Shown here: positions 1 through 4,214 of the stretch, piece by piece
Layout: each line of letters begins with the position of its first letter
How positions within the stretch are numbered: position 1 is the stretch's first letter
Origin: a virus
Taxonomy: Duplodnaviria; Heunggongvirae; Uroviricota; Caudoviricetes
IMG/VR virus record: IMGVR_UViG_2529292835_000008
DNA: 4,214 nucleotides
Strand: one strand, 5' to 3'
The notes under the pieces: generated by a model
The model's input: the letters and a program-made list of their open reading frames with translations, nothing else
Databases searched by the model: none
What the model was told of the DNA's origin: nothing
Program-made: the position numbers and the translations under genes

Positions 1-2
1 GG

Positions 3-266
3 ATTGGAGCCGGAAGAATGGCCATTGACGGGCTCAAGGAGGTTCAGGAATCAGTGATGCGCATTGAGGCCGGACTGAGCACGTATGAGAAAGAGCTGGC
101 GCTGATGGGCGAGGATTATCAGGACATTTTCCGCCAGCAGGTCAGGGAATCTGCAGAGCGGGAAAAAGCCGGACTCTCACGTCCGGTGTGGATAGCGCAG
201 GCGTATCAGCAGCAGATAGCGGAGAGTCGCAGGCCGGAAGAGGAGACAACACCACGTGAGACGTAA
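3..266 (+). CDS. B: Portal protein, C-terminal fragment (5' end lies upstream of the window)
   Basis: Frame 0 is open from the window edge to TAA at 264-266. The translation (...MAIDGLKEVQESVMRIEAGLSTYEKELALMGEDYQDIF...) matches my recollection of the lambda gpB C-terminus, and the position immediately upstream of the C protease gene is the conserved lambdoid order. Confidence 0.8.
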   Translation: MGAGRMAIDGLKEVQESVMRIEAGLSTYEKELALMGEDYQDIFRQQVRESAEREKAGLSRPVWIAQAYQQQIAESRRPEEETTPRET

Positions 267-1562
267 TCTTTCACACATTATTGCCGCAGCATTCAATGAA
301 CCGCTGCTTCTGGAGCCCGCCTATGCGCGGGTTTTCTTTTGTGCGCTTGCAGGCCAGCTTGGGATCAGCCGCCTGACGGATGCGGTGTCCGGTGACAGCC
401 TGACTGCCCAGGAGACACTCGCGACGCTGGCGTTATCCGGTGATGATGACGGACCACGACAGGCCCGCAGTTATCAGGTCATGAACGGCATCGCCGTGCT
501 GTCGGTTTCCGGCACGCTGGTCAGCCGGACGCGGGCGCTGCAGCCGTACTCGGGGATGACCGGTTACAACGGCATTATCGCCCGTCTGCAACAGGCTGCC
601 AGCGACCCGATGGTGGACGGCATTCTGCTCGATATGGACACGCCAGGCGGAATGGTGGCGGGGGCATTTGACTGCGCTGACATCATCGCCCGTGTGCGTG
701 ACATAAAACCGGTATGGGCGCTGGCCAACGACATGAACTGCAGTGCAGGTCAGCTGCTTGCCAGTGCCGCCTCCCGGCGTCTGGTCACGCAGACCGCCCG
801 GACAGGCTCCATCGGCGTCATGATGGCTCACAGTAATTACGGTGCTGCCCTGGAGAAACAGGGGTGGAAATCACGCTGATTTACAGCGGCAGCCATAAGG
901 TGGATGGCAATCCTACAGCCATCTTCCGGATGACGTCCGGGAGACACTGCAGTCCCGGATGGACGCAACCCGCCAGATGTTTGCGCAGAAGGTGTCGGCA
1001 TATACCGGCCTGTCTGTGCAGGCTGTGCTGGATACCGAGGCTGCAGTGTACAGCGGTCAGGAGGCCATTGATGCCGGACTGGCTGATGAACTTGTTAACA
1101 GCACCGATGCGATCACCGTCATGCGTGATGCACTGGATGCCTAAATCCCGTCTCTCAGGAGGGCGAATGACCAAAGAGACTCAATCAACAACTGTTTCAG
1201 CCACTGCTTCGCAGGCTGACGTTACTGACGTGGTGCCAGCGACGGAGGGCGAAAACGCCAGCGCGGCGCAGCCGGACGTGAACGCGCAGATCACTGCAGC
1301 GGTTGCGGCAGAAAACAGCCGCATTATGGGGATCCTCAACTGTGAGGAGGCTCACGGACGCGAAGAACAGGCCCGCGTGCTGGCAGAAACCCCCGGTATG
1401 ACCGTGGAAACGGCCCGCCGCATTCTGGCAGCTGCACCACAGAGTGCACAGGCGCGCAGTGACACTGCGCTGGATCGTCTGATGCAGGGGGCACCGGCAC
1501 CGCTGGCTACAGGTAACCCGGCATCTGATGCCGTTAACGATTTGCTGAACACACCAGTGTAA
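256..1562 (+). pseudogene. C: Prohead protease C (S49/ClpP-like), disrupted by three frameshifts
   Basis: The homologous protein is split over three frames: frame 1 at 256-879 (207 aa, stop TGA 877-879), frame 0 at 864-~913 (VEITLIYSGSHKVDGNP), frame 2 at ~911-1144 (YSHLPDDVRETLQSRMDATRQ...DALDA, stop TAA 1142-1144), then frame 0 at 1140-1562 (PKSRLSGGRMTKETQ...NTPV). Joined, the segments give about 436 codons, consistent with the 439-aa lambda gpC. The first candidate start is GTG 256, preceded by GAGGAG at 240-245; the lambda-equivalent start position (247) reads CAA here. Confidence 0.75.
1167..1562 (+). CDS. nu3: Capsid scaffolding protein Nu3, nested in the 3' part of C
   Basis: ATG at 1167 is preceded by a strong Shine-Dalgarno AGGAGGG (1157-1163). 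The 131-aa ORF MTKETQSTTVSATASQ...NDLLNTPV is in the same frame as the final C segment and ends at TAA 1560-1562, with no frameshift downstream of 1167. If Nu3 instead begins at the upstream Met at 959 (MDATRQ, frame 2), that longer form is interrupted by the stop at 1142-1144. Confidence 0.75.
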   Translation: MTKETQSTTVSATASQADVTDVVPATEGENASAAQPDVNAQITAAVAAENSRIMGILNCEEAHGREEQARVLAETPGMTVETARRILAAAPQSAQARSDTALDRLMQGAPAPLATGNPASDAVNDLLNTPV

Positions 1563-1571
1563 GGGATGTTT

Positions 1572-1904
1572 ATGACGAGCAAAGAAACCTTTACCCATTA
1601 CCAGCCGCTGGGCAACAGTGACCCGGCACATACGGCAACCGCGCCCGGCGGATTGAGTGCGAAAGCGCCTGCAATGACCCCGCTGATGCTGGACACCTCC
1701 ACCCGTAAGCTGGTTGCGTGGGATGGCACCACCGACGGTACTGCCGTTGGCATTCTGGCGGTTGATGCTGACCAGACCAGCACCACGCTGACGTTCTACA
1801 AGTCCGGCACGTTCCGTTATGAGGATGTGCTCTGGCCGGAGGCTGCCAGCGACGAGACGAAAAAACGGACCGCGTTTGCCGGAACGGCAATCAGCATCGT
1901 TTAA
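1572..1904 (+). CDS. D: Head decoration protein D
   Basis: A 110-aa ORF from ATG 1572 ([27 protein letters not shown]...[10 protein letters not shown]) closely matches lambda gpD, with a few substitutions. An SD-like AAGGGA sits at 1561-1566. The ORF track's ATG at 1566 would add 2 residues but has no spacing to the SD. Confidence 0.9.
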
Positions 1905-1921
1905 CCTTACCCTTCATCACT

Positions 1922-1946
1922 AAAGGCCGCCTGTGCGGCTTTTTTT
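1922..1946 (+). terminator. D-E intergenic GC hairpin followed by a T-run (terminator-like or mRNA-stabilising stem-loop)
   Basis: Stem 1922-1930 (AAAGGCCGC) pairs with 1935-1943 (GCGGCTTTT), loop CTGT at 1931-1934, followed by a T7 run at 1940-1946. A second T7 run at 1953-1959 lies directly before the E start codon. Confidence 0.5.
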
Positions 1947-1959
1947 ACGGGATTTTTTT

Positions 1960-2985
1960 ATGTCGATGTACACAACCGCCCAGCTGCTGGCGGCAAATGA
2001 GCAGAAATTTAAGTTTGATCCGCTGTTTCTGCGTCTCTTTTTCCGTGAGAGCTATCCCTTCACCACGGAGAAAGTCTATCTCTCACAAATTCCGGGACTG
2101 GTAAACATGGCGCTGTACGTTTCGCCGATTGTTTCCGGTGAGGTTATCCGCTCCCGTGGCGGCTCCACCTCTGAATTTACACCGGGATATGTCAAGCCGA
2201 AGCATGAGGTGAATCCGCAGATGACCCTGCGTCGCCTGCCGGATGAAGATCCGCAGAATCTGGCGGACCCGGCTTACCGCCGCCGTCGCATCATCATGCA
2301 GAACATGCGAGACGAAGAGCTGGCCATTGCCCAGGTCGAAGAGATGCAGGCAGTTTCTGCTGTGCTTAAGGGCAAATACACCATGACCGGTGAAGCCTTC
2401 GATCCGGTTGAGGTGGATATGGGCCGCAGTGCGGCCAACAACATCACACAGTCCGGTGGTACGGAGTGGAGCAAGCGTGACAAGTCCACGTATGACCCGA
2501 CCGACGATATCGAAGCCTATGCGCTGAACGCCAGCGGAGTGGTGAATATCATCGTGTTTGATCCGAAAGGCTGGGCGCTGTTCCGTTCCTTCAAAGCCGT
2601 CAAGGAGAAGCTGGATACCCGTCGCGGCTCTAATTCCGAGCTGGAGACAGCGGTAAAAGACCTGGGCGAAGCGGTGTCCTATAAGGGGATGTATGGCGAT
2701 ACGGCGATCGTCGTGTATTCCGGACAGTACGTGGAAAACGACGTCAAAAAGAACTTCCTTCCGGACAACACGATGGTGCTGGGGAACACTCAGGCACGCG
2801 GTCTGCGCACCTATGGCTGCATTCAGGATGCGGACGCACAGCGCGAAGGTATTAACGCCTCTGCCCGCTACCCGAAAAACTGGGTGACCACCGGCGATCC
2901 GGCGCGTGAGTTCACCATGATTCAGTCAGCACCGCTGATGCTGCTGGCTGATCCTGATGCGTTCGTGTCCGTACAACTGGCGTAA
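1960..2985 (+). CDS. E: Major capsid protein E
   Basis: A 341-aa ORF from ATG 1960 (MSMYTTAQLLAANEQKFKFDPLFLRLFF...DAFVSVQLA) is near-identical to lambda gpE as I recall it. The ORF track's upstream start at 1933 lies inside the terminator-like hairpin and is probably not used. Confidence 0.95.
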   Translation: MSMYTTAQLLAANEQKFKFDPLFLRLFFRESYPFTTEKVYLSQIPGLVNMALYVSPIVSGEVIRSRGGSTSEFTPGYVKPKHEVNPQMTLRRLPDEDPQNLADPAYRRRRIIMQNMRDEELAIAQVEEMQAVSAVLKGKYTMTGEAFDPVEVDMGRSAANNITQSGGTEWSKRDKSTYDPTDDIEAYALNASGVVNIIVFDPKGWALFRSFKAVKEKLDTRRGSNSELETAVKDLGEAVSYKGMYGDTAIVVYSGQYVENDVKKNFLPDNTMVLGNTQARGLRTYGCIQDADAQREGINASARYPKNWVTTGDPAREFTMIQSAPLMLLADPDAFVSVQLA

Positions 2986-2987
2986 TC

Positions 2988-3008
2988 ATGGCCCTTCGGG
3001 GCCATTTT
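2988..3008 (+). promoter_or_regulatory. E-FI intergenic stem-loop with a TTCG tetraloop
   Basis: ATGGCCC (2988-2994) pairs with GGGCCAT (2999-3005), loop TTCG at 2995-2998, followed by TTT and a pyrimidine tract. The stem sequesters the in-frame ATG at 2988. Confidence 0.5.
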
Positions 3009-3026
3009 CTCTCTGTGGAGGAGTTC

Positions 3027-3413
3027 ATGACGAAAGATGAACTGATTGCCCGTCTTCAGGAGCTGGGTGAGCAACTGAACCGTGATGTCAGCCTGACGGG
3101 GACGAAAGAAGAACTGGCGCTCCGTGTGGCAGAGCTGGAAGAGGAGCTTGATGACACTGCCGATCAGGATACCCCTCTCAGCCCGGAAAATGCGCTGACC
3201 GGACATGAAAATGAGGTGGTATCAGCGCAGCCGGATACCGTGACTGATACGGCTGCTCTGGTCACGGTTGTGGCACTGGTGACGCTGCATACCGATGCAC
3301 TTCACGCCACGCGGGATAAACCTGTGGCATTTGTGCTGCCGGGAACGGCGTTTCGTGTCTCTGCCGGTGTGGCAGCCGAAATGACAGAGCGCGGCCTGGC
3401 CAGAATGCAATAA
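3027..3413 (+). CDS. FI: DNA-packaging / head assembly protein FI
   Basis: ATG 3027 is preceded by SD GGAGGA (3017-3022). The 128-aa product MTKDELIARLQELGEQLNRDVSLTGTKEELALRVAELEEELDD...MTERGLARMQ resembles lambda gpFI, with several substitutions and a small in-frame length difference in the acidic central region. Confidence 0.85.
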   Translation: MTKDELIARLQELGEQLNRDVSLTGTKEELALRVAELEEELDDTADQDTPLSPENALTGHENEVVSAQPDTVTDTAALVTVVALVTLHTDALHATRDKPVAFVLPGTAFRVSAGVAAEMTERGLARMQ

Positions 3414-3424
3414 CGGGAGGCGCT

Positions 3425-3778
3425 GTGGCTGATTTCGATAACCTGTTCGATGCTGCCATTGCCCGCGCCGATGAAACGATACGCGGGTACATGGGAACGT
3501 CAGCCACCATGACATCCGGTGAGCAGTCAGGTGCGGTGATACGTGGTGTTTTTGATGACCCTGAAAATATCAGCTATGCCGGACAGGGCGTGCGCGTTGA
3601 AGGCTCCAGCCCGTCCCTGTTTGTCCGGACTGATGATGTGCGGCAGCTGCGGCGTGGAGACACACTGACCATCGGCGAGGAAAACTTCTGGGTGGACCGG
3701 ATTTCGCCGGATGATGGCGGAAGCTGTCATCTCTGGCTTGGGCGGGGCGTACCGCCTGCCGTTAACCGTCGCCGCTGA
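3425..3778 (+). CDS. FII: Head-tail joining protein FII
   Basis: GTG start at 3425 is preceded by SD GGGAGG (3415-3420). The 117-aa ORF MADFDNLFDAAIARADETIRGYMGTSAT...GRGVPPAVNRRR matches lambda gpFII in length and sequence, and ends at TGA 3776-3778. Confidence 0.85.
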   Translation: MADFDNLFDAAIARADETIRGYMGTSATMTSGEQSGAVIRGVFDDPENISYAGQGVRVEGSSPSLFVRTDDVRQLRRGDTLTIGEENFWVDRISPDDGGSCHLWLGRGVPPAVNRRR

Positions 3779-3789
3779 AAGGGGGATGT

Positions 3790-4035
3790 ATGGCCATAAA
3801 AGGTCTTGAGCAGGCCGTTGAAAACCTCAGCCGTATCAGCAAAACGGCGGTGCCTGGTGCCGCCGCAATGACCATTAACCGCGTTGCGTCATCCGCGATA
3901 TCGCAGTCTGCGTCACAGGTTGCCCGTGAGACAAAGGTACGCCGGAAACTGGTAAAGGAAAGGGCCAGGCTGAAAAGGGCCACGGTCAAAAATCCGCAGG
4001 CCAGAATCAGGGTTAACCGTAACCGGCTCATTTAA
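3790..4035 (+). CDS. Z: Tail completion protein Z homolog, ending prematurely at 81 codons (lambda gpZ is about 192 aa)
   Basis: ATG 3790 is preceded by an AAGGGGGA SD-like run. Residues 1-77 (MAIKGLEQAVENLSRISKTAVPGAAAMTINRVASS...KNPQARIRVNR) match lambda gpZ nearly exactly. Similarity is lost from codon 78, and an in-frame TAA follows at 4033-4035. Confidence 0.7.
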   Translation: MAIKGLEQAVENLSRISKTAVPGAAAMTINRVASSAISQSASQVARETKVRRKLVKERARLKRATVKNPQARIRVNRNRLI

Positions 4036-4072
4036 ACCGTCTGGTCTGTTTCCTCCGGCTCTACAAAAATAA

Positions 4073-4094
4073 TGTCCATCATTTTTAATGGACA
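4073..4094 (+). other. AT-rich inverted repeat (hairpin) in the post-Z segment
   Basis: TGTCCAT (4073-4079) pairs with ATGGACA (4088-4094) around an 8-nt loop CATTTTTA. It lies in a locally AT-rich stretch (4060-4100), unlike the GC-rich coding sequence upstream. Confidence 0.4.
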
Positions 4095-4101
4095 CTATCG
4101 T

Positions 4102-4214
4102 ATGAAACACCGGACCTGGATCACTGAAGCTTTACGTCTTCACTTTGAAGAACATTTACCCCGGGTTGTGGCCGGGCGTCGCCTGGGTGTACCAAAATCA
4201 ACTGTTTGTAGTAT
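4102..4214 (+). CDS. Partial ORF (5' part only) encoding a helix-turn-helix-like N-terminus; identity unknown (divergent Z continuation or a DNA-binding/transposase-like protein)
   Basis: Frame 1 is open from 4036 to the window edge, with ATGs at 4072 and 4102. Translation from 4102 is MKHRTWITEALRLHFEEHLPRVVAGRRLGVPKSTVCS; the motif RRLGVPKSTV resembles HTH segments of transposase or regulator N-termini. No obvious SD precedes either ATG. Confidence 0.3.
   Translation, partial: MKHRTWITEALRLHFEEHLPRVVAGRRLGVPKSTVCS

Follow-up and report, generated by a model that had tools for sequence, protein, structure and literature searches.

Apparent frameshifts in a lambda-type gene C of an Escherichia coli draft contig most likely reflect the collapse of two prophage copies

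In the lambda-type head module, gene C encodes an S49 prohead protease fused to a scaffold (Nu3) domain and is followed by D, E, FI, FII and Z, giving the gene order B-C-D-E-FI-FII-Z. The lambda record annotates the nested nu3 CDS at 5132..5737 (201 aa), and Nu3 is presumably a 131-residue product starting at Met309 of gpC. Genuinely defective lambdoid prophages of E. coli, IS-interrupted or truncated, also exist, and the IS lesions that they carry recur in finished genomes. Furthermore, short-read drafts can contain collapsed-repeat artefacts that simulate frameshifted 'pseudogenes', in which multi-copy modules are merged into a short, repeat-bounded contig, the sequence switches between copies SNP by SNP, and errors are confined to the columns that vary between copies. 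The usual outcome is chimeric substitutions or ambiguity codes, and both single-SNP switches and contig ends that fall within repeats are typical of a collapsed-repeat consensus.

The window analysed here is the whole stretch of 4,214 bp under study. By exact-sequence look-up it is the entire contig AQEA01000148.1 of GCA_000354775.2, a draft assembly of E. coli 2747800, from whose ORFs the proteins EMW66706-EMW66713 were deposited. It holds a lambda-type head module comprising the portal end, C/Nu3, D, E, FI, FII and a 5' fragment of Z, followed by the left end of an IS66-family element. Window positions 200-1600 are 97% identical in nucleotide sequence to lambda 4433-5775, and many lambdoid phages match likewise. 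The finished genome used for comparison is the complete ETEC genome of strain 120899 (NZ_CP025916), which contains two lambdoid prophages, copy A (locus L001; 579,660-583,640) and copy B (L009; 4,747,105-4,750,640), each with an intact 439-codon S49 peptidase gene C, together with a third prophage at 5.09 Mb (copy C, L003). Gene C lies between the portal gene B and the decoration gene D in the window, in lambda (L002) and in copies A and B. The features of the window, with the prophage copy that each resembles, are as follows.

1..315, plus strand: ORF 18-266, which closes a portal gene, then some 20 codons from the start of gene C, all of the copy C type (third lambdoid prophage); left end of the contig, probably chimeric.
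256..1562, plus strand: gene C, lambda-type (S49 prohead protease fused to a scaffold/Nu3 domain), 97% nucleotide identity to lambda C, Pfam Peptidase_S49.
863..864, plus strand: dropped column 1, wobble position of Gly206 (copy A, GGT; copy B, GGC); base absent in the window.
913..914, plus strand: dropped column 2, wobble position of Pro223 (copy A, CCC; copy B, CCT); base absent in the window.
1140..1142, plus strand: dropped columns 3 and 4, where copy A has GCG CGT (Ala-Arg) and copy B has GCA CAT (Ala-His); with both variable bases missing, the window shows GC-C-T and a new TAA at 1142-1144.
1167..1562, plus strand: 131-aa C-terminal in-frame ORF behind a GGAGG at 1158-1162, corresponding to the Nu3-type scaffold portion; free of artefact.
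1572..1904, plus strand: gene D (head decoration), intact; alleles as in copy A.
1960..2985, plus strand: major capsid gene E, intact, with alleles alternating A/B/A/B/A/B/A and B at the 3' end.
3027..3413, plus strand: FI, intact, of the copy B type; at window 3156 it has the in-frame 9-nt gap by which B differs from A.
3425..3778, plus strand: FII, intact, with mixed B/A/B alleles.
3790..4019, plus strand: 5' fragment of tail gene Z, resembling copy A and genuinely interrupted; similarity to lambda stops at 4019.
4020..4214, plus strand: left end of ISCro1 (IS66 family), tnpA from 4072; the contig ends inside this multi-copy element, whose copy in L009 is identical.

As deposited, gene C departs from the lambda C/nu3 pair in that four bases are lacking and the gene runs through three frames. 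Compared with lambda and with intact E. coli prophages, the region 256-1562 lacks one base after each of window positions 863, 913, 1140 and 1141 and has no single reading frame. This was established by a three-way alignment of the window, lambda and copy A of strain 120899, the comparison with lambda C that had been proposed as a check when the interruption was first noticed; it confirmed all three indel sites and agreed almost to the base with the original prediction that C is unreadable in one frame. At site 1, GGGTGTGG has become GGGGTGG through a loss after 863, and the frame 1 stop TGA 877-879 closes an ORF at 256-879 (207 aa). The single-base loss and the stop are as predicted, but the proposed contraction of a G4 homopolymer is not: the lost base is the T/C wobble base of Gly206, and the G4 run is itself a product of the loss, so no homopolymer contraction took place. 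At site 2, where a 1-nt loss had been expected at ~909-914, AATCCCTAC is changed to AATCCTAC by the loss of a base after 913. At site 3, GATGCGCGTAAA reads GATGCCTAAA; two bases are indeed gone and a new TAA arises at 1142-1144, but they represent two separate, non-adjacent single-base losses, after 1140 and 1141, rather than one deletion. The four missing bases cluster within 280 bp, and the split gene is assembled as ORFs 256-879, 959-1144 (61 aa) and 864/1167-1562. The C region had been reckoned 4 nt short of a 439-codon gene, and restoring the four bases does yield an uninterrupted 1,311-nt ORF. No other frame-breaking indel was found in the 3,953 bases of a global alignment to copy A, and the sole further indel there is an in-frame 9-nt difference in FI. 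This FI difference from copy A, at window 3156, is the copy B allele, a natural polymorphism in an acidic linker region and no error.

The nature of these losses is revealed by comparing the window with both source copies. Copies A and B are 97.9% identical over 6.2 kb, and from window 316 to the IS junction every base that is unlike A equals B and every base that is unlike B equals A. A dynamic-programming check on the A/B alignment, in which identity was forced at invariant columns and only A, B or a drop was allowed at variable ones, regenerated window 316-4016 without error; it passed through 3,629 invariant columns, took the A base 35 times and the B base 37 times, dropped 4 columns and kept copy B's in-frame 9-nt gap in FI. 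The reconstruction left no private substitution in window 316-4016. Over this span the contig is a mosaic made up exactly of A and B, with each absent base coinciding with an A/B SNP. Within window 700-1214, A and B differ at exactly four positions (T/C, C/T, G/A and G/A), and these are the four missing bases. The probability that four random positions would all fall on the 76 A/B SNP columns is (76/3714)^4 = 1.8e-7, and that of landing on exactly those four of 515 positions is 3.5e-10. In addition, gene E shows three single-SNP allele switches, at 2002, 2331 and 2436, which are in keeping with collapse because a mixed consensus is expected to alternate alleles.

The same behaviour was found in other drafts. 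The 61-aa fragment, whose existence requires site 3, is recorded on five contigs, and three of these belong to drafts of the same project: AQBU01000156 of p0305293.11 (L004), AQCB01000046 of p0305293.6 (L006) and AQCA01000149 of p0305293.5 (L007). By exact look-up, the 207-aa truncated product is recorded on AQEA01000148.1 only. Frameshifts abound in the prophages of the three sibling contigs and split portal, terminase, C, FI, FII, V and G. When indels were mapped on copy A coordinates, each proved to be a single-base deletion; within the stretch that both A and B span, all were on or adjoining A/B SNP columns (38/38 in L004, 54/54 in L006 and 13/13 in L007), no insertion was present in any of the three, and every substitution relative to A was again an A/B SNP. 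Positions deleted in the sibling contigs are positions that are substituted relative to copy A in the window, and a consensus step emitting allele 1, allele 2 or nothing is therefore suspected. At one and the same SNP column, A, B or a gap may be found depending on the isolate, and the pattern differs from isolate to isolate. From their shared sample prefix, the three p0305293.N assemblies are taken to represent sibling isolates, and because they share that prefix real mutations would not be expected to vary so among them. The same four columns of C are dropped in all four project drafts, though other SNP columns differ between them; an even read balance where A and B are most alike may account for this shared drop. 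Outside the project, 3,221 complete E. coli genomes with 4,552 homologous places yielded no instance of the four deletions, and the best complete-genome matches over a 316-bp stretch spanning the sites (316/320) are identical save for the four gaps.

Altogether, the four missing bases are almost certainly an assembly artefact caused by the collapse of copies A and B, and not a sign of prophage decay; the comparison of sequences yields near-identical copies in a related finished genome, an exact mosaic, and patterns that differ among drafts of one project, as is characteristic of a collapsed repeat. To judge from the exact mosaic, the prophages of strain 2747800 very probably include copy A (Z interrupted by ISCro1), copy B and the more distant copy C. 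A short-read assembler would have merged A and B into one 4.2-kb repeat contig, whose left end would be joined to copy C via shared sequence and whose right end would stop in the multi-copy ISCro1. At each A/B-variable column the consensus would then have put out the A base, the B base or nothing. Nothing would have been emitted at four columns, all in C, where the read pile-up was presumably heterozygous; each such omission mimics a 1-nt deletion, and the gene would consequently seem frameshifted three times. The columns may have been dropped through a gap call at balanced positions or, as a conjecture, through the later stripping of IUPAC codes (Y, Y, R, R would fit). The contig thus resembles described collapsed-repeat artefacts in the merging of multi-copy modules in a short repeat-bounded contig, in its SNP-by-SNP copy switching and in the confinement of errors to inter-copy variable columns, and differs from their usual outcome in that the variable base is omitted outright. 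A literature search on the source assemblies returned nothing useful.

Genuine pseudogenisation would mean that a resident defective prophage has truly lost four bases of C while decaying under relaxed selection; a gene split in a defective, decaying prophage was one of the two alternatives offered in the original prediction. That selection on C is relaxed is plausible, since ISCro1 in Z has made the prophage behind the 3' end truly defective, and identical losses do stand in four assemblies. These assemblies, however, come from one project, and they contain 13-54 further 'deletions', all on or adjoining SNP columns and in isolate-specific patterns. For the deletions to be real, all four would need to have landed on the only A/B SNP columns of window 700-1214 (P about 2e-7), with zero private substitutions over 3.7 kb, which is unlike decay, while C remained intact in both copies of the related finished genome and 0/4,552 complete-genome copies acquired the deletions. 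Pseudogene lesions should be independent of inter-copy SNPs, and here 4/4 lesions in the window lie on SNP columns and 105/105 in the siblings on or adjoining them. True loss in the resident prophage is therefore very improbable, and slow decay was rejected on the absence of private substitutions and of the deletions from complete genomes. Ordinary errors of sequencing chemistry where coverage is poor, for instance miscalled homopolymers or read ends of low quality, would require no repeat collapse and might be suspected from the closeness of the indels (within 280 bp) and from the position of site 2 in a C run. Yet a homopolymer is present at just one of the four sites, site 1 has lost a T/C that stood between G's, and random errors would miss inter-copy SNPs, include insertions and not recur at identical positions in four assemblies. 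Homopolymer and read-quality errors were discarded, a base run being present at site 2 only and 4/4 sites falling on inter-copy SNPs, and this explanation is likewise very improbable. The original alternative of sequencing or assembly indel errors holds as regards an assembly error, but the homopolymer that it pointed to is not the reason; the losses are neither homopolymer nor read-quality errors and lie at columns where the collapsed copies disagree.

Recombination between prophages could also be considered, with gene conversion producing a true A/B mosaic and faulty or aberrant mismatch processing removing the mismatched nucleotides and inactivating C. Such scars would account both for the mosaic and for the coincidence of deletions with SNPs, and, if true, would constitute an undescribed mutational signature of inter-prophage recombination. 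However, up to 54 of them would be needed in about 8 kb, different in each sibling isolate, and the process would have to produce never an insertion nor a private substitution and to be absent from thousands of complete genomes with multiple lambdoid prophages. To our knowledge, no repair pathway deletes exactly the mismatched base, and recombination scars are regarded as extremely improbable. Programmed ribosomal frameshifting, or another form of recoding that reads C through the three sites, finds nothing in its favour beyond the frame changes themselves. C is encoded in a single frame in all relatives, including lambda and both source copies, the net shift over three sites would be -4 nt, and a stop follows within 14 nt of site 1. 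The probability of recoding is practically negligible, and programmed frameshifting was ruled out by the single-frame homologues.

One of the five contigs bearing the 61-aa fragment belongs to another laboratory. This locus, L005 (BNGB01000001.1 of GCA_016587035.1, 3950-6000), is a lambdoid prophage on a 1.56-Mb contig. All its head genes are broken up, private substitutions are numerous, and insertions and multi-base deletions occur too, several of the lesions being at CCWGG motifs. One base is missing from site 2 as well, and two from site 3, where GCGCG has become GCG, giving the same 61-aa ORF; by a rough estimate the sharing of sites 2 and 3 by chance has p=0.005, and the DNA change at site 3 differs from that of the window. 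L005 may reflect either true decay or a noisy long-read consensus. The occurrence of the fragment on five contigs was considered as support for real deletions and rejected, three of the contigs sharing the same artefact and L005 being separately degraded or noisy with a different site-3 change.

The two ends of the contig are of different origin. Window 1-347 matches L003 6001-6347, in copy C of strain 120899, at 346/347 positions with a single mismatch at 342, and since this is another prophage of the same ETEC strains a composite contig is suspected. Copies A and B have 19 differing positions in 270-315, and the comparison suggests a switch from the copy C type to the A/B type between 315 and 342. 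Copy C is more divergent than A and B, with another portal C-terminus and a C homologue annotated in strain 120899 as a 1,506-nt CDS of ~501 aa. At the right end, the window is contiguous with copy A through the Z-ISCro1 junction, up to L001 9966, and NZ_CP025916 annotates that junction as a partial 'phage tail protein' followed by ISCro1. On the evidence of these matches, the contig is probably a three-way chimera, with copy C at the left, an A/B body and the Z-ISCro1 end of copy A at the right, and not a real recombinant.

The insertion in Z is real. The junction of ISCro1 with the tail gene Z of copy A (window 4019/4020; L001 9542-12827) is common to several complete ETEC genomes, including that of H10407. 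At its left end (L009 1-2600), copy B has its terminase gene A truncated by a second, identical copy of ISCro1; L009 1-2576 and the inverted stretch L001 9771-12346 match with 100% identity. The copy that gives the 3' end of the contig is defective, by ISCro1 in Z and not by the frameshifts in C. Copies A and B thus resemble genuinely defective E. coli lambdoid prophages, with ISCro1 in Z and in terminase gene A, respectively, both seen in finished genomes; such IS lesions recur in finished genomes, whereas the 'frameshifts' of C do not.

With either allele set restored, gene C forms a single open frame of 436 aa that is equal to A, B and lambda around the sites. The repaired protein contains a complete Pfam Peptidase_S49 domain (PF01343, E=1.4e-44, residues 147-294), and in the sequence alignment the region around the conserved 'NCSAGQ' motif is unchanged from lambda. 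The gene order B-C-D-E-FI-FII-Z, the S49 domain and, base for base, the internal GGAGG-ATG are shared with the lambda C/nu3 pair. The window's first ~20 codons of C come from another lambdoid allele (MRRNLSHII... versus MTAELRNLPHI... in lambda). Once the dropped columns are restored, gene C is in no way unusual. The fragments, for their part, match the S49 profile only at positions 3-59 (the 207-aa product) and 92-150 (the 61-aa product), and the former would hold only about the first 40% of the domain. The expectation that only a truncated protease of ~203 residues would be made is not supported, both source copies in the related complete genome having intact 439-codon C genes. The 207-aa 'truncated protease' is an annotation product of the artefact, and a cell is not likely to make such a protein. 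In the real genome of strain 2747800 gene C is very probably intact, and we infer that both actual copies there have intact C genes. The split C is most likely not a real feature, and the head protease gene an ordinary, intact lambda-type C/Nu3.

The biological weight of this result is slight, and its practical value lies in a caution about false pseudogenes in public drafts. At least 4 public drafts of one project (2747800, p0305293.5,.6 and.11) show single-base drop-outs where the merged prophage copies disagree, numbering 4 to 54 in each prophage region examined, and the sibling drafts appear to point to a project-wide origin of the false pseudogenes. Fragment proteins stand in NCBI as real products (e.g., EMW66706-EMW66708, ENG46426, ENH58090 and ENH47261), those deposited from the sibling drafts including ENG46426.1, ENH58090.1 and ENH47261.1. 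Surveys of prophage decay, pseudogene counts and 'truncated protease' families that use such assemblies would be misled. Indels coinciding with the inter-copy SNPs of a related finished genome offer a flag for this artefact that requires no reads.

The nested nu3 gene depends on where its start is placed. The original prediction held that the Nu3 frame stays intact, which is correct for the 131-aa ORF from ATG 1167 but not for the 201-aa nu3 annotated in the record. The latter starts at window 959, is cut at site 3 by the artefactual TAA 1142-1144, and appears as the 61-aa ORF 959-1144. The in-frame internal start is present in the sequence, with GGAGG and the ATG in a register identical to lambda. 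The protein EMW66708.1 is annotated as a capsid assembly protein, and the record of phage 434 bears a note beginning 'real Nu3 start ...'. The annotation was compared at window 959-1562 versus 1167-1562, at L002 3700-4305 and at L010 900-1505. The first ~60 residues of the 201-aa nu3, as annotated, still match the C-terminal half of the Pfam S49 profile (92-150), and the 131-aa ORF behind the strong GGAGG has no match in Pfam. A literature search on the true Nu3 start gave nothing decisive. From these coordinates, the widely propagated nu3 start may be too far upstream. Between D and E, at window 1921-1958, a GC-rich hairpin is followed by T runs (AAAGGCCGCCTGTGCGGCTTTTTTTACGGGATTTTTTT); by its sequence it looks like an intrinsic terminator, and the stretch is identical in the window, copy A and copy B.
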